From assembly GCA_039026855.1 (NCBI GenBank), contig JBCCLL010000007.1:780-64779 (forward strand): a stretch of 64,000 nt of DNA, given 5' to 3'. The stretch is from Pseudomonadota bacterium (GTDB taxonomy: Bacteria; Pseudomonadota; Alphaproteobacteria; Rhodobacterales; Rhodobacteraceae). This document shows positions 50,774 to 59,935 of the stretch, piece after piece (position 1 is the first letter of the stretch; each line of letters starts with the position of its first letter). Under the pieces are notes generated by a model. It saw only the letters and a list, made by a program, of their open reading frames with translations. It made no database searches and was not told the DNA's origin. The translations under genes were made by a program, and so were the position numbers.

Positions 50774-51652
50774 ATGTGCGGAATTGTCGGCCTGTTTCTG
50801 AAAGATCAGAAGATGCAGTCACAGCTCGGGGCGCTCTTGACGGATATGCTGGTGACCATGTCGGATCGCGGACCCGACAGCGCTGGCATCGCCGTGTACC
50901 GCGACGCTGATCCGGCGCGTGTCAAAATCACCGTGCAATCGGCACAGCCGGCCGAGGATTTTGCCGGCCTTGCAGATGCGCTGGGCGTCGACGTCACGGT
51001 GATCGACAGCCACGCGATACTTACCGTGCCTGCTGACCGCGCCGACGCGTTGTGCGCGCAGATTGCCCGCGATCACCGCGGACTGCGCATCATGTCGCGC
51101 GGGCAGGCCATCGAGATCTACAAAGAGGTCGGCCTGCCCAAATCCGTGGCCGACCGCTTTGACATCCCCGCGCTGTCGGGCAGCCACGGCATCGGCCACA
51201 CGCGCATGGCAACCGAAAGCGCGGTCACAACCCTTGGGGCGCACCCGTTTTCGACCGGGGCGGATCAATGCCTTGTGCACAATGGATCGTTGTCCAACCA
51301 CAACCGCCTGCGCCGTCAACTGGCGCGCCAGGGCACCCATGTACAGACCGACAACGACACCGAGGTGGCCGCCGCTTACCTGACCCACCGCATGGAACAG
51401 GGCGACGATCTGGGTGCCGCACTCACCGCCGGGCTGCGCGATCTCGACGGGTTCTACACCTTTGTGGTGGGCACGCAGGACGGATTTGGCGTGCTGCGCG
51501 ACCCCATCGCGTGCAAGCCTGCCGTGCTGGCCGAAACGGATGATTACGTCGCCTTTGGCTCCGAATACCGCGCGCTGGTGAACCTGCCGGGCATCGCCAA
51601 CGCGCAAGTGTGGGAGCCCGAACCCGCCACCGTCTATTTCTGGAGGCACTGA
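50774..51652 (+). CDS. glxB: Class II glutamine amidotransferase; N-methylglutamate synthase subunit A (MgsA/GlxB)
   Basis: MCGIVG, RGPDSAG, GHTRMATES, HPF, VHNG, DTE; first gene of a coupled glxBCD-glnT operon. Confidence 0.9.
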   Translation: MCGIVGLFLKDQKMQSQLGALLTDMLVTMSDRGPDSAGIAVYRDADPARVKITVQSAQPAEDFAGLADALGVDVTVIDSHAILTVPADRADALCAQIARDHRGLRIMSRGQAIEIYKEVGLPKSVADRFDIPALSGSHGIGHTRMATESAVTTLGAHPFSTGADQCLVHNGSLSNHNRLRRQLARQGTHVQTDNDTEVAAAYLTHRMEQGDDLGAALTAGLRDLDGFYTFVVGTQDGFGVLRDPIACKPAVLAETDDYVAFGSEYRALVNLPGIANAQVWEPEPATVYFWRH

Positions 51653-52335
51653 TGCAGCAGCTCGACCTCGACACGCAAAGCTTGCGCGACGTGAACGCAA
51701 CCTTGCAGGCGCAGGACGCGCAGACCAATCAGACCGCGTGGGAGATCGTCAATCCCAAGGGCGCGCATGCCATCGCCTGCGGCCTCGACAGTGCCATTGC
51801 CGTCACCGTCCAAGGCTCCACTGGCTACTATTGCGGCGGCATGAACAAACAGGCCGAAATCCGCGTCAACGGATCAGCAGGGCCTGGCGTGTGCGAAAAC
51901 ATGATGTCGGGCAAGGTCGTGATCGACGGCGACGCCAGCCAATATGCCGGGGCGACGGGCCATGGCGGGCTTTTGGTGATCAAGGGCAACGCCTCAAGCC
52001 GCTGCGGCATCTCGATGAAGGGCATCGACATCGTCGTGCACGGCAGTGTCGGCCACATGAGCGCGTTTATGGCGCAATCTGGCACCCTAGTGGTGTGCGG
52101 CGATGCTGGCGACGCGCTGGGGGACAGCATCTATGAGGCACGGCTTTTTGTGCGCGGCGCCGTGGCGTCACTCGGCGCCGATTGCATCGAAAAAGAGATG
52201 CGGCCTGAGCATCTCGAACTACTGGGCGATCTACTGGCCGCCGCCGAAAGCGACGCCGACCCGACCGAATTTCGCCGCTACGGTTCCGCCCGCGCGCTTT
52301 ACCATTTCGACATCGACAACGCAGGGGCCTATTGA
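51652..52335 (+). CDS. glxC: GXGXG-domain protein; N-methylglutamate synthase subunit B (MgsB/GlxC)
   Basis: NPKGAHAIACG, GYYCGGMN, ENMMSG, RCGISMKG, GHMSAFMAQ; TGATG coupling. Confidence 0.9.
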   Translation: MQQLDLDTQSLRDVNATLQAQDAQTNQTAWEIVNPKGAHAIACGLDSAIAVTVQGSTGYYCGGMNKQAEIRVNGSAGPGVCENMMSGKVVIDGDASQYAGATGHGGLLVIKGNASSRCGISMKGIDIVVHGSVGHMSAFMAQSGTLVVCGDAGDALGDSIYEARLFVRGAVASLGADCIEKEMRPEHLELLGDLLAAAESDADPTEFRRYGSARALYHFDIDNAGAY

Positions 52336-53663
52336 TGGATCACACGCCCAAGACACACCCCGTCAAGCCGTGGACGTTTGACGACTACACCACCTCATAC
52401 ATCCGGCGCGCAGCGGCCACCGGCATCTATGATATCCGCGGCGGCGGGTCGAAACGGCGCGTGCCGCATTTCGACGATCTGCTGTTTCTGGGCGCGTCCA
52501 TGTCGCGCTACCCGCTCGAAGGCTACCGCGAGGCCTGCGGGACCAACGTAACCCTTGGCACACGGTTTGCCCAAAACCCCATCCATCTGGACATCCCCAT
52601 CACCATCGCGGGCATGAGCTTTGGCGCGCTCTCGGGTCAGGCCAAAGAGGCGCTGGGCCGCGGCGCCTCTGAGGCGGGCACCTCGACCACCACGGGCGAC
52701 GGCGGGATGACAGACGAAGAGCGTGGCCATTCCACCAAGCTGGTCTACCAGTACCTACCGTCGCGCTATGGCATGAACCCCGACGATCTGCGCCGTGCCG
52801 ACGCGATCGAGATTGTCGTCGGCCAAGGTGCCAAGCCCGGCGGCGGCGGCATGCTGCTGGGCCAAAAGATCAACGACCGCGTGGCCGAGATGCGCAACCT
52901 GCCTGCGGGCATCGACCAACGCTCCGCCTGCCGCCACCCCGACTGGACCGGCCCGGATGATCTTGAGATCAAGATCCTCGAACTGCGCGAAATCACCGGC
53001 TGGAAGGTGCCGATTTTTATCAAGGTCGGCGGCGCCCGGCCCTATTTCGACACCACGCTGGCGGTCAAGGCAGGCGCTGACGTGGTTGTGCTGGACGGGA
53101 TGCAGGGTGGGACGGCGGCCACGCAGGACGTGTTCATCGAGCATGTGGGCCAGCCCACGCTGGCCTGCATTCGCCCCGCCGTGCAGGCGTTGCAAGATCT
53201 CGACATGCACCGCGAGGTGCAGCTTGTGATCTCGGGCGGTGTGCGCACCGGCGCCGACGTGGCCAAGGCGCTGGCGCTGGGCGCGGATGCGGTGTCCATC
53301 GGCAGTGCCGCCCTCATTGCGCTGGGGGACAACGACCCCGCACTGGAAGAGGAATACCGCAAGCTGGGCACAACCGCGGGCGCGTTCGACGACTGGCACG
53401 AGGGCAACGACCCCGCGGGCATCACCACCCAGGACCCGGTGCTCGCAGCCCGGCTCGACCCTGTGGCCGCGGGGCGCAGGCTGGCCAATTACCTCAAGGT
53501 GATGACACTGGAGGCGCAGACCATCGCCCGCGCCAATGGCAAAAGCCACGTGCTCAACCTCGAACACGAAGACCTGTGCGCGCTGACAATCGAAGCTGCC
53601 GCGATGGCAGGGGTGCCGCTGGCCGGCACCGACTGGATCCCTGGCAAAAAGGATGCCTTTTGA
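52335..53663 (+). CDS. glxD: FMN-binding glutamate synthase family; N-methylglutamate synthase subunit C (MgsC/GlxD)
   Basis: GMSFGALS, TTGDGG, GQGAKPGGGG, SACRHPD, DGMQGGT, SGG.RTGADVAKA. Confidence 0.92.
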   Translation: MDHTPKTHPVKPWTFDDYTTSYIRRAAATGIYDIRGGGSKRRVPHFDDLLFLGASMSRYPLEGYREACGTNVTLGTRFAQNPIHLDIPITIAGMSFGALSGQAKEALGRGASEAGTSTTTGDGGMTDEERGHSTKLVYQYLPSRYGMNPDDLRRADAIEIVVGQGAKPGGGGMLLGQKINDRVAEMRNLPAGIDQRSACRHPDWTGPDDLEIKILELREITGWKVPIFIKVGGARPYFDTTLAVKAGADVVVLDGMQGGTAATQDVFIEHVGQPTLACIRPAVQALQDLDMHREVQLVISGGVRTGADVAKALALGADAVSIGSAALIALGDNDPALEEEYRKLGTTAGAFDDWHEGNDPAGITTQDPVLAARLDPVAAGRRLANYLKVMTLEAQTIARANGKSHVLNLEHEDLCALTIEAAAMAGVPLAGTDWIPGKKDAF

Positions 53664-54964
53664 TGACCGACCTCGCCACCTGGGCCGCCGAGAGTGGCGT
53701 CAAATTCTTCCTATGCAACTTCACCGATCTTTTTGGCGTGCAACGGGCAAAGCTTGTGCCCACAGAGGCGATAGCCAGCGCTCAATCGGGCGGTGCGGGG
53801 TTTGCAGGCTTTGCCGCATGGCTCGACATGACCCCCGCCCACCCCGACATGCTGGTGATGCCCGACGTGGACAGCGTGATCCAACTGCCCTGGAAACCGG
53901 AACTGGCCTGGGTCGCGGGTGATCCGTGGATGGACGGCAAACCAGTCGCACAGGCCCCGCGCGTGGTGCTGAAAACCCTGGTCCAAGCAGCCGCCGACCG
54001 CGGCTACATGTTGCAAACCGGGGTGGAGCCGGAATTTCACCTGATCAGCGCCGACGGCACCGACATCTCGGACACGCGCGACACTCAGGAAAAGCCGTGT
54101 TACGACCAATCCGCGCTGATGCGCCGGTATGAGGTCATCGCCGAGATCTGTTCGACCATGATCGCGCTGGGCTGGGGACCGTACCAGAACGATCACGAGG
54201 ATGCCAACGGCCAGTTCGAGATCAACTGGAATTTCGGCCCCTGCCTGAACACCGCCGACCAGCACGCGTTTTTCAAGTTCATGGTCAAGGAGATCGCGGA
54301 AAAGCACGGGCTGCGCGCGACCTTCATGCCCAAACCTTTTTCGCATCTGACCGGCAATGGCTGCCACGTGCACCATTCGCTGTGGACCGCGGACGGGTCC
54401 ACTTGCGTCTTTGACGGCGAGGACGAGATGGGCCTGTCGGACCAGGCATACCACTTTCTGGGTGGGCTGATGGCGCACGGTCAGGCGCTCTGCGCGATCA
54501 CCAACCCGACCGTGAACAGCTACAAACGTATCAACGCGCCCGCGACCCTGTCGGGGGCCACGTGGTCACCGCAATCGGTCACCTATGGCGGCAACAACCG
54601 CACCCACATGGTGCGCATCCCCGATGGCGGGCGGCTGGAGTTGCGTCTGGCCGACGGTGCGGCAAACCCGTACCTGCTGCAAGCCGTGCTGCTGGCCGCG
54701 GGTCTGGATGGGCTGGAGCGCGCGCTTGATCCCGGCAAGCGGCTCGACATCGACATGTACACCGAAGGGTCCAAGGCGCGCGGCGCGAAAAAGCTGCCGC
54801 TCAACATGCTCGACGCCCTGCGGGCCTATGAAAAGGACAAACCGCTCAGCACCGCCATGGGGGCCGAGTTTTCCACAGCCTACCTCAACCTGCGCATGCG
54901 CGAATGGACGCAATATTGCCAGTACCTGACCCAATGGGAACGCGACACAACGCTCGACTGCTAG
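53663..54964 (+). CDS. glnT: Type III glutamine synthetase-like gamma-glutamylmethylamide synthetase (GmaS)
   Basis: RAKLVP, GAGFAGFA, GVEPEF, KPCYDQ.ALMR, DHEDANGQFE, ATFMPKP, NSYKR, NNRTHMVR; context with mgsABC. Confidence 0.9.
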   Translation: MTDLATWAAESGVKFFLCNFTDLFGVQRAKLVPTEAIASAQSGGAGFAGFAAWLDMTPAHPDMLVMPDVDSVIQLPWKPELAWVAGDPWMDGKPVAQAPRVVLKTLVQAAADRGYMLQTGVEPEFHLISADGTDISDTRDTQEKPCYDQSALMRRYEVIAEICSTMIALGWGPYQNDHEDANGQFEINWNFGPCLNTADQHAFFKFMVKEIAEKHGLRATFMPKPFSHLTGNGCHVHHSLWTADGSTCVFDGEDEMGLSDQAYHFLGGLMAHGQALCAITNPTVNSYKRINAPATLSGATWSPQSVTYGGNNRTHMVRIPDGGRLELRLADGAANPYLLQAVLLAAGLDGLERALDPGKRLDIDMYTEGSKARGAKKLPLNMLDALRAYEKDKPLSTAMGAEFSTAYLNLRMREWTQYCQYLTQWERDTTLDC

Positions 54965-55051: not shown

Positions 55052-55480
55052 CTATGACCCGCCACCCGCCTGCGCGTGGCTGTCATGCAGAAAACTGCGC
55101 AGATCAACCACGTCTTTGGCGTCCAGCGAGACATAGATAAAGCCCATGTTGGTCCGCTCCGTCACCATCTCACCAGGATAGGGCAGATAGCTTAGCTCGC
55201 GCGAGCCAAAGGACGGCGACGCCGTGCCAACCTGCCACTCGGTGGTCAGTTGCACGTCCACGAGCTTCATCGACGCGCCCCCGTCCGGCGCAGGACGCTC
55301 CAGCGGCACATTTGCCAGGCGCAGATAGGCCATCTTGTCCTTGGCCGCGACAAAGCCGTCGATGAACTGCGTGGCCAGCACCTGCAACTCCGCCGCAGCA
55401 TCTTCGGGTTTGAGGTGGCTGTGCAGGTGGTCGTGGCTGTGGTTATGGCCGATATGGCCACCGACGATGTCATGGGGCAT
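55052..55480 (-). CDS. Hypothetical protein with His-rich N-terminus (142 aa), last gene of the guanidine operon
   Basis: MPHDIVGGHIGHNHSHDHLHSH...; GGAGG RBS; start overlaps the CMD gene end. Confidence 0.82.
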   Translation of the reverse strand: MPHDIVGGHIGHNHSHDHLHSHLKPEDAAAELQVLATQFIDGFVAAKDKMAYLRLANVPLERPAPDGGASMKLVDVQLTTEWQVGTASPSFGSRELSYLPYPGEMVTERTNMGFIYVSLDAKDVVDLRSFLHDSHAQAGGGS

Positions 55481-55874
55481 CCGCGCCCTCCTCCTTTTCT
55501 TGGGCAAAGACCTCAAGTGCGGCGTTCAACCCGTTGATGGCCGCAGGAAACCCGCCGTAAAGCGCCATCTGCCAGATCACTTCGCCGATCTCCTGCTGGC
55601 TCAGCCCCGCCTTGCGCCCACCTGCGATATTGACCTTGAGCTGCGCCGCCGTCTGCCCGCCAAGCGCGGTCAACGCCGCGATGGTGGCAAGATAACGGTC
55701 GCGGAGCGGCAAGCCGGGCCGCGCGTATTGCCGCCCATAGGCAAAGTCGACAACCCCCTCGGCCATGCCAGGCACCAGATGACCGTAACGCGACTCCAAC
55801 GTGGTCTCCATGCCGGGGTTGAGCGTTTCGGCAAGGGCGCGCCCCGCCTCAAGGGTGCTTGGTGTGTCGCTCAT
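55470..55874 (-). CDS. Carboxymuconolactone decarboxylase (CMD/AhpD-fold) family protein
   Basis: FAYG..YARPGL..RDR.L.TIAALTALG, AGLS..EI.EVI.Q..LYGGFPAA; no CxxC. Confidence 0.88.
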   Translation of the reverse strand: MSDTPSTLEAGRALAETLNPGMETTLESRYGHLVPGMAEGVVDFAYGRQYARPGLPLRDRYLATIAALTALGGQTAAQLKVNIAGGRKAGLSQQEIGEVIWQMALYGGFPAAINGLNAALEVFAQEKEEGADAP

Positions 55875-55877
55875 AAC

Positions 55878-57119
55878 TCAACGCTCCGTCCTGCCGTGCC
55901 AGCGCTTCCCTTCAAACGCGCCGTGCGGGATCGTCACCGGCTTGTCGATATGGGCCGTGTGCTTGCCCAGATTGCCTGACGCCACAAGGCTGCCCAGCAC
56001 ATCCACAATCACCCGAGTGCCCATCAGCGCCGTGATGTCCGAGGTGTCGTAGGGCGGCGAGACCTCGACCAGTTCCATGCCGCAAATCCCTTCTGCCGCG
56101 ACCTTGGAGGCCAGCGCCAGCGCCTCACGCGGCAGGAACCCGCCCGGCTCCGGCCAGCCGGTGCCGGGGACAAAGCCGCAGTCGATGCTGTCGATGTCAA
56201 AAGACATATAGACCATATCGACCCCGTCCCACGCCATCTCCAGCGCCATCTCAGCGGTCTTGTCGATGCCCATCTTCTCCATGTCGGACATGGTGATGAT
56301 GTTCGTCTCGCGCTCGCGGGCCACTTTCACGGCCTCGCGCGGGACCTGCCAGCCGCCGATGCCCACCTGCACCAGGTTCTTGGCGGGCACGTTGGGCAGG
56401 TTGGTGGAATGAAACCACGGCGTGGTGTGCATCCGCTCGTCCAGGTCTTTCTCCTGAATGTCGGCGTGGCGGTCGAAATGCACAATCCCGATCTTCTTCG
56501 ACGTGCATTCGGCAATGCCGCGCACGCAGGGAAAGCCGATGGAGTGATCGCCCCCGATCATGATCGGCAGGCTGCCGCTTGAAAACACATGGCTCACCGC
56601 GCGGCTGATCTGGTCAAAGCTCTTTTCGATATTGGCTGGGATCGTAAACACATCGCCCGCGTCGCACAGCGTCATCTGTTCACGCAGATCGACGCCCATC
56701 TCGTAATTATACGGCGTATAAAGCGCGCTGATCTTGCGCACGCCCTGCGGTCCAAACCGGGTGCCGGGACGGTATGTGGTGCCCCCGTCAAACGGGATCC
56801 CCAGAACAGTGGCATCATAGTCTTTCACCTCCGTGACATCTTCGGTGTAGGGCGCTTTGAGAAAGGTGTTGATGCCCGCGTAATGCGGCAACTCTCCGCG
56901 CGCGAAGGTTGGGATGGACTTGTCTTCGATGCTGTCGGCGCCGGTCAGCCCCATGCGCAGGGCCCAGCGGCGTTCTTCGTCCCAGCGGCCTTCGGGGATG
57001 TCGGCTTCGGCTTTCATCGACTTCCAGCCTTGCAGCTTGGTCAGATCCGGGTGGTGCTGGCGCCGGTCGCGAGGGGCGCGCAAGTCGCGCGGGTGATGGC
57101 TGCGTGAGCGGTCGGGCAT
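55878..57119 (-). CDS. gdmH: Guanidine hydrolase (GdmH/guanidinase-type ureohydrolase)
   Basis: RGELPHYAGINTF, GTTYRPGTRFGP, PYNYEMGVDLRE, GGDHS, HFDRHAD, DLDERMHTTPWFH, GIGGWQ, DIDSID.GFVPGTGWPEPGG (Trp where agmatinases have Thr); downstream of a guanidine-I riboswitch. Confidence 0.85.
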   Translation of the reverse strand: MPDRSRSHHPRDLRAPRDRRQHHPDLTKLQGWKSMKAEADIPEGRWDEERRWALRMGLTGADSIEDKSIPTFARGELPHYAGINTFLKAPYTEDVTEVKDYDATVLGIPFDGGTTYRPGTRFGPQGVRKISALYTPYNYEMGVDLREQMTLCDAGDVFTIPANIEKSFDQISRAVSHVFSSGSLPIMIGGDHSIGFPCVRGIAECTSKKIGIVHFDRHADIQEKDLDERMHTTPWFHSTNLPNVPAKNLVQVGIGGWQVPREAVKVARERETNIITMSDMEKMGIDKTAEMALEMAWDGVDMVYMSFDIDSIDCGFVPGTGWPEPGGFLPREALALASKVAAEGICGMELVEVSPPYDTSDITALMGTRVIVDVLGSLVASGNLGKHTAHIDKPVTIPHGAFEGKRWHGRTER

Positions 57120-57137: not shown

Positions 57138-57956
57138 TTAGCCCGCCGCGCCCCGGGCGTGACCCGGGGCCTCTGCGGGCGAGAGGTCCCGGGTCAAGCC
57201 CGGGACAGGATGGTCTGCAAGGATGTTCTGAAACGGGATGCCCCCGTCACGGGCATCAAAATCATAGGTGATCGTGGCGCCGATCAGGTCAGGATCGCTC
57301 GGGTCCCAGCGCGGCTTGTCAAACACCAGCACCCGGTCGCCCAGTTTGAACCCTTCTTCCAGATCATGGGTGACCATAAACACGGTCATGCCGGTTTCCG
57401 CCCGCAGGTCCATCAGAAAATCATGCATCGACAGCCGCGTACCGGGATCAAGCGCGCCAAAGGGTTCATCGAGCAGCAGAATGCGCGGCTTGGCCGCGAG
57501 CGCCTGCGCGATGGCCAGCCGCTGCTGCATGCCACCCGACAGCGCCGCGGGATAGGCTTGCGCCATGTGATCCAGACCACAGCGCGCCAGCACCTCCATG
57601 GCGCGGTCACGCGCGGCCTGTTTGCCGGCACCAAAAAACCGGCCCCAGGGCAGGCGAAAGCTTTCTCCCGCGATCACATTGTCGATCACCGTCATATGCG
57701 GAAAGACCGAGTATTTCTGAAACACCACACCGCGGTCCAACCCCGGCTCGCGCGCCGGGTCCGCACCAGCGATGCGAATTTCGCCCCGCGTCGGTGTCTC
57801 TTGCGCCAACAAAAGCCGCAGGAATGTGGACTTGCCACAGCCAGACGCGCCCACAATCGAGATGAATTCGCCTTCATCCACGCTCACCGAAACGCGTTCC
57901 AGGATCGGGCGCGCGCCGTAAGACTGAAAGATGTTGGTCGCGGTGACAAAGCTCAC
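57138..57956 (-). CDS. ABC transporter ATPase (TauB/SsuB/NrtD-like), guanidine uptake
   Basis: GASGCGKST, LSGGMQQR, LLLDEPFGALD, VTHD; GTGA coupling to the permease. Confidence 0.93.
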   Translation of the reverse strand: MSFVTATNIFQSYGARPILERVSVSVDEGEFISIVGASGCGKSTFLRLLLAQETPTRGEIRIAGADPAREPGLDRGVVFQKYSVFPHMTVIDNVIAGESFRLPWGRFFGAGKQAARDRAMEVLARCGLDHMAQAYPAALSGGMQQRLAIAQALAAKPRILLLDEPFGALDPGTRLSMHDFLMDLRAETGMTVFMVTHDLEEGFKLGDRVLVFDKPRWDPSDPDLIGATITYDFDARDGGIPFQNILADHPVPGLTRDLSPAEAPGHARGAAG

Positions 57957-58765
57957 AGCGTCGCCTCCGTCCACGGGAAAAACCGCCGCGCAACCCAGCG
58001 CAAGGACAGGTCAATCACAAAGGCCAGCACCGTGATCCAGATCACATAGGTCAGGATCACATCCATCGCCAAAAACCGCCGCACCAGAAAGATGCGGTAG
58101 CCCAGGCCCTGTTCCGACGCGATCGCCTCCGCCGCGATCAGGAACAGCCAGGCAGGTCCCAGTGACAGCCGCAGCGCCTGGATCAACCGCGGCATCATCT
58201 GCGGCAGTGCCACCCGCAGCGCGATGACAGCCGTCGACGCGCCCAGCGTTTGCGCCTTCACGATCATCTCGCGCGGGATCTCCAGCACCCGGGTGGACAG
58301 ATCGCGGATCAGGAACGGCAGGATGCCCACGATGATCAGCACCACTTTGGACAGCTCGCCCAGGCCAAAGACGATGAACAGGATCGGCAGCACCGCCAAC
58401 GGCGGGATCATCGAGATAACCGCGACAAAGCCCGCCAGCGTGGCCCGCACATGCGGCAAAAGCCCAATCAGCACGCCAAAGATCACCGCCAGCGCCGCCG
58501 AAATGCCCACACCCAGGCTCAACCGGATCAGGCTGGCGGCAGTGTCGTGCCAGAACAGGATCTTGTCCGACCGCCGGTCCGGCTCGGTGAGCAGACGCAC
58601 CGCGGTGTCCATGATCTTGCCCGGCGCAGGCATCAGCTTGTCGGACGGGTTGACCGCCAGCCGGGCTTGCGACCCCATCGCATAGGCCACAAACAACAGG
58701 ACAAAAGGCAGGGCAATCAGCACCGCGCGCAGCGCGTTGCCGGGATGCCGGTTGATCAGACGCAT
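57953..58765 (-). CDS. ABC transporter permease (TauC/SsuC-like), guanidine uptake
   Basis: IPPLAVLPILFIVFGLGE, KAQTLGAS, AWLFLIAAEAI...GLGY. Confidence 0.93.
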   Translation of the reverse strand: MRLINRHPGNALRAVLIALPFVLLFVAYAMGSQARLAVNPSDKLMPAPGKIMDTAVRLLTEPDRRSDKILFWHDTAASLIRLSLGVGISAALAVIFGVLIGLLPHVRATLAGFVAVISMIPPLAVLPILFIVFGLGELSKVVLIIVGILPFLIRDLSTRVLEIPREMIVKAQTLGASTAVIALRVALPQMMPRLIQALRLSLGPAWLFLIAAEAIASEQGLGYRIFLVRRFLAMDVILTYVIWITVLAFVIDLSLRWVARRFFPWTEATL

Positions 58766-58786: not shown

Positions 58787-59845
58787 CTACAGCGCGCCGT
58801 CCGCCGCCATCTGCATATAGGTGGTGTCAAACCGGAACTGCACGTTGCCTGCATCCCCCGTGGTGGACCCGTCCGGGTAGGCGATGCCCACAAAATCCGC
58901 CGACGGCGCCCCTTCGCCCAGAATGCCCTTGTCAAAGAGGAACTCGGCCACGCTGACCATCGTCTCGGGCAATTCCGCACTGGCAGTAAAGGCCACCGCA
59001 TCCGCCGGGTCATAGAACATTTCGGTCGAGGCAAGCTGCGCCTTGTAGCCCGCCAGATCAGTGCCCGAGGCTTCGGCCATGGCCGTCAGCACCGCTTCGT
59101 CGCCCGCGGCCATCAGGCCCATGACCTCGTACCACGCGCCCACCAGCGCTTTGCCGAAATCGGGGTTGGCTTCGAGCGTTTCGGTGTTCACCACCATCAG
59201 GTCGATGATCTCGCCGGGGATATCGGAGCTGTCAAAAAGCTTGGTGGCGGTGGGGTCCTCAAGGATCGTGGACACGAGCGGGTTCCACGTCACCACCGCT
59301 TCGACATCGGATGTAGCAAAGGCTGCGATCATGTCGGCATCCGACGTGTTGATCACCGATGCCAGGTCCGCCTCGCGCAGCCCCACACTGTCGAGCGCAC
59401 GCGCCAGCAGATAATGCGACACTGACAGTTCCACCAGATTGACCGGCTTGCCCGCAAGTGACGCCAGATCACCGTCCCCTTTGACGATGACCGCGTCATT
59501 GCCGTTGGAAAAGTCGCCCACAATCAGCGCCGTGGTGTCGACACCACCGCCCGCTGGGATCGATAGGGTGTCCATATTGGTGGCCGACACACCGTCAAAA
59601 GCGCCGGCGGTGTACTGATTGATCGATTCCACATAGTCGTTGATCTGCACAATCTCGACATCGATGCCGTATTTGTCGGCCCATTTGTCCATGATGCCGC
59701 TCTCTTCCAGATAGCCCCAGGGCATCCAGCCGACATAGATGGACCAAGCCACGCGAAACTCGGTTTTTTCTTGTGCGATGGCGGCGCCTGCGGTGCCGAT
59801 CAAAAGAGCAGCCGCACCTATGACGACGTGACGAAGAACTTGCAT
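58787..59845 (-). CDS. ABC substrate-binding protein ('urea carboxylase-associated' family), probable guanidine binding
   Basis: Signal peptide; AWSIYVGWMPW, DYVESINQY, TNMD, DFSNGNDA, SVSHYLL, TWNP, PGEIID; first gene after the riboswitch. Confidence 0.9.
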   Translation of the reverse strand: MQVLRHVVIGAAALLIGTAGAAIAQEKTEFRVAWSIYVGWMPWGYLEESGIMDKWADKYGIDVEIVQINDYVESINQYTAGAFDGVSATNMDTLSIPAGGGVDTTALIVGDFSNGNDAVIVKGDGDLASLAGKPVNLVELSVSHYLLARALDSVGLREADLASVINTSDADMIAAFATSDVEAVVTWNPLVSTILEDPTATKLFDSSDIPGEIIDLMVVNTETLEANPDFGKALVGAWYEVMGLMAAGDEAVLTAMAEASGTDLAGYKAQLASTEMFYDPADAVAFTASAELPETMVSVAEFLFDKGILGEGAPSADFVGIAYPDGSTTGDAGNVQFRFDTTYMQMAADGAL

Positions 59846-59935
59846 GTGGATCATCCCTTGCAACGTCCCGCCCGGATCAGAGACATGGCGAGCCGTGGCG
59901 GAACAGGAGAAAACGGCTGTATGTCAGATGCAGTG

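Follow-up and report, generated by a model that had tools for sequence, protein, structure and literature searches.

GdmH is the enzyme through which guanidine becomes available as a nitrogen source and, for comammox bacteria, as an energy source; its discovery reportedly dates from 2022. To our knowledge, the only nickel route for this enzyme is the HypA/HypB-like pair GhaA/GhaB. The locus that we describe here raises the question of what a small His-rich protein, encoded at the end of a guanidine operon in a Rhodobacteraceae bacterium, does for this enzyme. The locus is located in a stretch of 64,000 nucleotides of contig JBCCLL010000007.1, which we call the window as a whole, and an initial annotation, made from the letters of the DNA, had singled out the protein as a candidate new nickel metallochaperone. 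The gene, for which we use the working name hisR, extends over 55052..55480 on the (-) strand and encodes a protein of 142 aa (P0001) that belongs to a family without a name.

We will first examine the surroundings of hisR. It is the final gene of a tightly packed operon of the (-) strand that begins with a guanidine-I riboswitch aptamer (RF00442, 59936..60049, 72.3 bits for a gathering score of 63, E 2.4e-11). The aptamer is followed by the gene of a periplasmic substrate-binding protein of the guanidine importer type (58787..59863, TIGR03427, 530 bits for a cut-off of 334), by those of an ABC transporter permease (57953..58765, PF00528) and of an ABC transporter ATPase (57138..57974, PF00005), then by gdmH, which encodes an orthologue of the arginase-family guanidine hydrolases (55878..57119, PF00491, 258 bits), by a gene for a CMD-family protein (55470..55874, PF02627, 59 bits in Pfam) and finally by hisR. 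The initial annotation had placed the gene within the operon of a putative nickel enzyme, and this reading of the neighborhood is borne out by the presence of the guanidine-I riboswitch, the importer, the GdmH-type hydrolase and the CMD protein. The same aptamer is also found upstream of the operon in other loci (L009, L036, L078, L095 and L100). The CMD gene, on the other hand, is an optional insertion between gdmH and hisR that is found in 7 loci only (the window, L011, L024, L028, L034, L046 and L048), and it looks like a lineage-specific insertion in which the overlapping ATGCCCCATGA junction was preserved. The genes downstream of hisR are variable in appearance, which is consistent with hisR being the end of the operon; a scan for a terminator downstream of hisR gave nothing convincing. 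In the window, a four-gene cluster of the (+) strand (50774-54964) runs towards the guanidine operon, and about 87 bp separate the stop codons of the two. Judging by its ORF translations, it encodes glutamine amidotransferase, GXGXG-domain, glutamate-synthase-like and glutamine-synthetase-like proteins, and we take it to resemble mgsABC-gmaS of the methylamine pathway.

The enzyme to which hisR is connected can be identified with precision. The hydrolase of the window matches solved Ni-dependent guanidine hydrolases of the PDB, namely 7esr/7oi1 (Synechocystis Sll1077; E 1.4e-165, 554 bits) and 9fek (E 6.4e-161, 539 bits), and the six canonical arginase-type metal ligands (H192, D216, H218, D220, D308 and D310) are invariant in the alignment. 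Because of this match and of these ligands, together with the riboswitch and the importer, we consider it a GdmH orthologue: close orthology to the nickel enzymes, intact ligands of the binuclear site and control by a guanidine riboswitch are all found in it.

The enzyme also carries an N-terminal arm (residues 1-34, 57018..57119 on the (-) strand) that contains SHHP as well as HHPD...GW and is conserved in frame across loci. An N-terminal extension of the hydrolase with two HH pairs had already been pointed out in the initial annotation, and it is genuine, since the upstream codons are kept in frame across the Rhodobacterales loci. In particular, an in-frame ATG located about 37 codons upstream of the conserved GdmH core is kept in nearly all of these loci, and a GGAG can be found 7 nt upstream of the gdmH ATG at 57119. 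The PDB alignments begin at M35, but this residue is ruled out as the GdmH start by the in-frame conservation of the upstream 34-37 codons. HHPD and GW are invariant in 16 of the 16 aligned GdmH sequences, four distant loci included, and reading upstream of three further distant loci gave HHPD or HHPN together with GW. The arm is absent from the only HisR-less GdmH-like enzyme that was found, that of genome G473 (60% identity). As far as sequences can tell, the HHPD...GW arm appears to track HisR, being present on all the HisR-linked GdmH proteins aligned and missing from the single HisR-less relative, and it may serve for docking or as a metal relay. A model of the full-length GdmH, built from a shallow alignment, reached a pLDDT of 54.9 and is uninformative as to the arm.

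We will now turn to hisR itself. The CMD gene and hisR overlap by 11 nt, ATGCCCCATGA (55470..55480 on the (-) strand, read directly from the sequence): the hisR ATG sits within this junction, its TGA is the stop of the preceding CMD gene, and a strong Shine-Dalgarno, AAGGAGGAG, precedes the hisR ATG. The overlap and the Shine-Dalgarno confirm the translational coupling that had been proposed. Most hisR loci show such a start/stop overlap, and in most of the other loci the same junction joins gdmH straight to hisR. The protein begins with a His-rich tail (residues 1-22, MPHD...GHIGHNH...HLHSH, 55415..55480 on the (-) strand), which is predicted by AF2 to be flexible. The translation of 55052-55480 gives the 8 His announced for these residues (positions 3, 9, 12, 14, 16, 18, 20 and 22), a content that far exceeds the chance expectation, and it also contains the motifs FIDGF and W.VGTASPSFGSRELSYLPYPG that had been quoted. 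Two further His are found near the C-terminus of P0001, and the protein has no Cys. The tail is followed by a folded core (residues 25-139, 55064..55408 on the (-) strand), for which the AF2 secondary structure comprises two helices, five strands and a C-terminal helix.

The linkage of hisR to gdmH is strict. In 80 of the 80 genome loci with enough flank, it lies directly after gdmH, or after the intervening CMD gene. These 80 named loci are all from Rhodobacterales, and the distant members were taken from their encoding contigs and from genome searches. Seven divergent HisR proteins (28-43% identity to P0001) were looked up in this way: six are encoded directly behind a GdmH orthologue (72-79% identity), and the contig of the seventh (P0141, 608 nt) is too short for its neighbor to be judged. 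Thus, at every hisR locus that can be judged, over 100 of them and down to 28% identity, the gene is located directly behind a GdmH orthologue. The same is true at the level of genomes. Among 401 Pseudomonadota genomes sampled evenly, GdmH was found at E<=1e-100 in 6, and HisR in exactly those 6. Among 401 Alphaproteobacteria, also sampled evenly, 9 genomes encode HisR and the same 9 encode a high-identity GdmH, with the two genes adjacent; the tenth GdmH match among these genomes comes from G473, whose enzyme has 60% identity. When both samples are combined, 14 of 14 genomes, from at least 11 families, carry both genes; these genomes are kin and hence not independent, and the pattern has no exception. 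The remaining HisR match, in G770, has 21 bits and was taken as spurious. The initial annotation had made its proposal depend on such a co-occurrence, and would have abandoned it if homologues occurred mostly away from gdmH. They do not: adjacency holds for the 80 loci, for the judgeable divergent members and for the 14 genomes, and the co-occurrence is complete in both samples. The hisR gene is co-transcribed in a guanidine-I riboswitch operon and co-regulated by guanidine, coupled to its preceding gene and co-inherited with gdmH in the sampled genomes, and HisR is very probably a dedicated partner of GdmH.

What kind of partner it could be has to be read from the family as a whole. The search of a collection clustered at 90% returned 1392 HisR homologues at E<=1e-3, every one annotated as hypothetical and most of them belonging to the Roseobacter group, and an exhaustive search of 1.84 billion representatives gave 129 clusters at 50% identity. 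The named records are from Alphaproteobacteria throughout, and the one cluster with names is assigned to Alphaproteobacteria, Rhodospirillales. Judged on these named records, most of the metagenomic members being without names, we found no evidence for the family beyond Alphaproteobacteria. P0001 has no match in Pfam or NCBIfam at E<=0.1, 60 diverse members have no meaningful match in Pfam at E<=1, and no chain among the PDB sequences is matched by P0001 at E<=10. The domain, which the initial annotation could not assign to a named family, indeed lies outside them.

The family has a conserved core of about 100 residues, in which the nearly invariant columns of the alignment are F39, D48, L53, L55, P59, L73, G85, P89, P100, P102 and Y116. 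D48 is the sole nearly invariant acidic residue of the core, and conservation extends to the loops G-[TS]-A-S-P-x-F-G and Y-x-P-x-P. There is no conserved His or Cys in this core, where the median count of His and Cys is 0. The tails follow a different logic. In Rhodobacterales, the tract is kept as a sequence, MPHDIV[NG]GHIGHNH..HLHSH, beyond mere composition. The conservation of the His tract, on which the proposal also hinged, stands for the close homologues with a complete core, in which the N-terminal tract and the GHN motif are found in 119 of 119 (25 of them having a C-terminal tract too), and stands only in part for the 65 divergent representatives: a tail with 4 or more His occurs at the N-terminus in 31 of them and at the C-terminus in 11, which makes 41 with a tract in at least one tail, while the other 24 have fewer than 4 His in each. 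Some of these 24 probably result from mis-called starts, or from wrong-frame or truncated gene calls. The HisR of L100, which was checked on the DNA, is genuinely tract-less: it is 106 aa long and starts at the gdmH stop. The genome that hosts it has HypA, and ureG adjoins the operon. The His tract behaves like an appendage on the HisR core, which can be N-terminal, C-terminal, present at both ends or missing, and the existence of tract-less members means that the core must have a function that is independent of the tail.

The AF2 model of HisR, built from a 60-sequence alignment, is confident overall: its mean pLDDT is 88.3, with values of 94-98 for residues 30-130 and of 57-59 for the His-rich head (residues 1-20), which is of low confidence. 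The best Foldseek match in the PDB has an E of 0.21 and a TM below 0.3. Using VIA-align against 48,161 representative chains, the best Z was 4.3, for a CarD Tudor-like domain over 51 aligned residues. Neither value rises above the noise. An SH3/Tudor-like fold was considered for HisR and rejected, as rows with a Z of about 4 are at the noise level. On the basis of this model, no solved fold seems assignable to HisR, and a new fold is not thereby proven.

The link with nickel comes from the enzyme and from its surroundings. The GdmH of Synechocystis depends on nickel and owes its maturation to the co-transcribed HypA-like GhaA and HypB-like GhaB (PMC12704784; PMC12186494). The metformin and dimethylguanidine hydrolases need a co-encoded HypA/HypB pair, and hupE follows (PMC11399263; PMC11271267). 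More generally, the full activity of GdmH and of the metformin and dimethylguanidine hydrolases requires chaperones of the HypA/HypB type, to which hupE is often linked (PMC12704784; PMC11399263). In comammox Nitrospira, which lack such chaperones, nickel loading was called unclear and the recombinant enzyme was under-metallated; the GdmH of N. inopinata is partially active without any chaperone (PMC11410670), so that a helper may not be essential.

No homologue of hypA or hypB was found near hisR when 116 loci, 1.3 Mb in all, were searched. Of the 14 host genomes tested, 9 lack HypA, including that of the window, which is only 89.9% complete. Nickel genes are found beside the operon. A HupE/UreJ nickel-permease gene lies directly after hisR in two lineages (L103, PF04955, 192 bits, and G260), and HupE/UreJ genes were noted at L103 3952-4542, L006 2080-2532 and L118 854-1471. 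In G473, a HupE/UreJ gene (189 bits) is located directly downstream of the HisR-less GdmH-like gene, under a LysR-type regulator. The urease cluster marker ureG adjoins the operon in L100 and in G770. In the genome of the window, ureE and ureG are found on another contig; this true UreE is separate from HisR. The orthology to Ni-dependent GdmH, the HupE/UreJ and urease neighbors, and the absence of hypA and hypB from the loci all strengthen the link with nickel. It can also be observed that G469 has, besides gdmH-hisR, another arginase-family gene, which adjoins hypA (L129, on C1 at about 3.62 Mb); enzymes served by HypA/B and by HisR would therefore coexist in one genome.

The linkage to gdmH, the His tract and this nickel context support the proposal of a new nickel metallochaperone, for which the binding and transfer of nickel are inferred steps. 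HisR is a strong candidate for a new kind of nickel-loading helper. We give about an even chance to the more specific proposal that it is a nickel-supply and maturation factor dedicated to GdmH, which would stand in for GhaA/GhaB. Under this proposal, the flexible His-rich tail would capture Ni(II), and the ligand-free alpha/beta core would dock on GdmH, possibly on the HHPD...GW arm. Nickel would then be handed to the binuclear site of GdmH without nucleotide hydrolysis, so that HisR, without a GTPase, would do the job that GhaA/GhaB do for the cyanobacterial GdmH. The urea released by GdmH would go to urease.

In function, the systems nearest to HisR are GhaA/GhaB (Sll1078/Sll1079) and the HypA/HypB of the Ni-ureohydrolases, and UreE is near as well. 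HisR occupies the same operon slot, downstream of or beside the gene of a Ni-ureohydrolase and in the context of a guanidine riboswitch, and its presumed job, bringing nickel into a binuclear site, is the same. As for GhaA/GhaB and for the HypA/HypB of the metformin and dimethylguanidine hydrolases, hupE is sometimes found alongside (PMC12704784; PMC11399263). The proteins themselves have no relationship in sequence or fold: HisR has neither zinc-ribbon Cys motifs nor a P-loop GTPase nor a Pfam match, and it is one small protein where GhaA/GhaB is a pair, with no nucleotide hydrolysis apparent. In particular, the HypA/GhaA profile PF01155, with its CxxC...CxxC, is matched neither by the Cys-free P0001 nor by the 60 members. 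A P-loop NTPase of the HypB/UreG/CobW type (PF02492) could not be found in HisR, which has no Pfam or NCBIfam match and no Walker A, and no NTPase partner for it is apparent.

HisR is like UreE in being small, cytoplasmic and encoded together with the Ni enzyme concerned, but the order of the secondary structure elements differs, the UreE domains PF02814 and PF05194 gave no profile match in HisR, and UreE has a core His at the dimer interface where the HisR core has none. The His-rich tail of UreE is variable among species and dispensable in some; more generally, the His-rich tails of UreE, HypB and SlyD vary in the same manner as that of HisR. UreE, HypA and HypB each have a conserved metal site in their core. 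With CooJ, CooT, SlyD and Hpn, which are His-rich or small Ni-binding accessory proteins, HisR shares a His-rich tail on a small folded domain and, presumably, the supply of nickel to one enzyme; there is no sequence match to them, the fold search reached a maximal Z of 4.3, and an FKBP/PPIase domain is absent. A His-rich linker is shared with the COG0523 GTPases (CobW/ZigA/YjiA), whose GTPase domain is absent from HisR.

The start of the protein, MPH.. or MH.., which is found in 118 of the 119 close homologues and in 22 of the 65 divergent representatives, presumably recalls the MHE nickel site of HypA, with a His at position 2-3 beside the free N-terminus. We consider this as a lead only: apart from this start, HypA and HisR are unrelated, and the H-D codons of Rhodobacterales carry the TGA of the upstream gene, so the overlap may explain part of the conservation of MPHD. 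In profile matches, Cys motifs, P-loop and core His, HisR fails the homology tests for HypA/GhaA, HypB and UreE, and its likeness to these proteins would be, if at all, one of analogy. As regards the His-rich Ni metallochaperones, a class defined by function and not by homology, HisR has both the His-rich segment and the linkage to a Ni enzyme. It apparently represents an unrelated family, absent from curated collections, that fills the role of a nickel-enzyme accessory. Literature searches on guanidinase, on guanidine and nickel in Roseobacter and on the metallochaperones of ureohydrolases returned no published description of this family.

The strongest points against a classical chaperone are the lack of a metal site in the HisR core and the existence of tract-less members. 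Because of these two points, docking is favored as the conserved function of HisR, with metal capture as an add-on. From there, one can imagine that HisR is the founding member of fold-novel, nucleotide-independent nickel insertases, the core of which would sit on the HHPD...GW arm while the tail and the arm would form a transient Ni-transfer site. We regard this extension as tentative and rather doubtful; if true, it would constitute a third maturation route for Ni-hydrolases, beside UreDEFG and HypA/HypB.

The same two points can be read without any delivery of nickel. HisR might belong to the GdmH oligomer as a non-catalytic subunit, or help this oligomer to assemble or to remain stable, perhaps by clamping the GdmH arm; its His tail would then be secondary or regulatory. 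The translational coupling suggests a near-stoichiometric synthesis, the core is conserved even in tract-less members and has no metal ligands, and the arm is invariant where HisR is present and missing in the one HisR-less relative. There is even a precedent among Ni-ureohydrolases, the non-catalytic partner MefH-beta/MetCb (PMC11399263). The two proteins, however, evolve very differently: GdmH is 73-98% identical across loci while HisR goes down to 28%, which is unusual for an obligate structural subunit. Moreover, the GdmH enzymes of known structure are homo-oligomers that are active with no such partner (PMC12186494; PMC11410670), and the recurrence of His tracts at either terminus implies a selection for metal binding. 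We therefore find it unlikely that HisR acts as such a subunit or assembly factor. A prediction of the complex between the GdmH core (residues 35-413), with the N-terminal arm left out, and HisR gave a score of 0.00, which we count neither for nor against a contact.

HisR could also be an Hpn-like buffer or store of nickel or of divalent metals, induced together with GdmH to keep metal available locally or to avoid toxicity, and without specific transfer. This would suit a low-complexity His-rich tail whose length varies from about 8 to more than 20 His, as well as the absence of a conserved metal site from the core. A generic buffer would hardly be expected, though, to follow a single enzyme gene through more than 11 families without one stray copy, and both the folded core, which is conserved, and the tract-less members point to a specific function at the protein level, which makes simple buffering an improbable role.

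The metal itself could also be another one. The identity of the metal would not be readable from the sequence of HisR, arginase-family enzymes mostly use Mn, and His tracts bind Zn, Co and Cu too. HisR might then handle Mn, Zn or Co, or filter out the wrong metal, and the alphaproteobacterial GdmH might not be a Ni enzyme; no characterized alphaproteobacterial GdmH was found in the literature searched. Against this, the orthology to the two Ni-GdmH structures is very close, and HupE/UreJ and urease genes adjoin the operon in several lineages, so that we consider a metal other than nickel very improbable. That HisR, for all its lack of homology to characterized proteins, would have nothing to do with metals or with the maturation of GdmH, and would act in regulation, protect against guanidine stress or be a hitch-hiking ORF, is scarcely credible, given its confident fold and conserved family, which make it a real protein, its strict linkage to gdmH and the absence of any DNA-binding or enzymatic signature.

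Coming back to HisR as a nickel-loading helper of GdmH, the consequences would be of several kinds. If true, the few known families of nickel chaperones would be joined by a new one, a single-protein, GTPase-free helper confined to marine and soil Alphaproteobacteria. Such a helper would also explain how the abundant bacteria of the Roseobacter group can make use of guanidine in seawater, where nickel is present at trace levels, and it would make HisR a simple co-expression partner to obtain active guanidinase in biotechnology.

Two observations concern unusual contexts of the gene. In L101 (1-4670 on the (-) strand), a divergent gdmH-hisR locus has neither the NMT1-type importer nor the riboswitch, and is instead divergent from an Opp/Nik-type ABC transporter, the binding protein of which scores best with nikA-type models, well below their cut-offs (176 bits versus 600). 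The second one is P0253 (L131 528-1610), in which a CobW GTPase domain is fused in frame to a complete HisR at the His-rich linker. This protein is encoded on one metagenomic scaffold of 1.6 kb, where the preceding gene is not gdmH and the GC profile has no clear break. The search for longer HisR proteins gave four matches, and the three others are clearly chimeric, with HisR fragments joined to unrelated proteins, so the fusion in P0253 is probably an assembly chimera as well; if real, it would provide a Rosetta-stone link between HisR and the metallochaperone GTPases.
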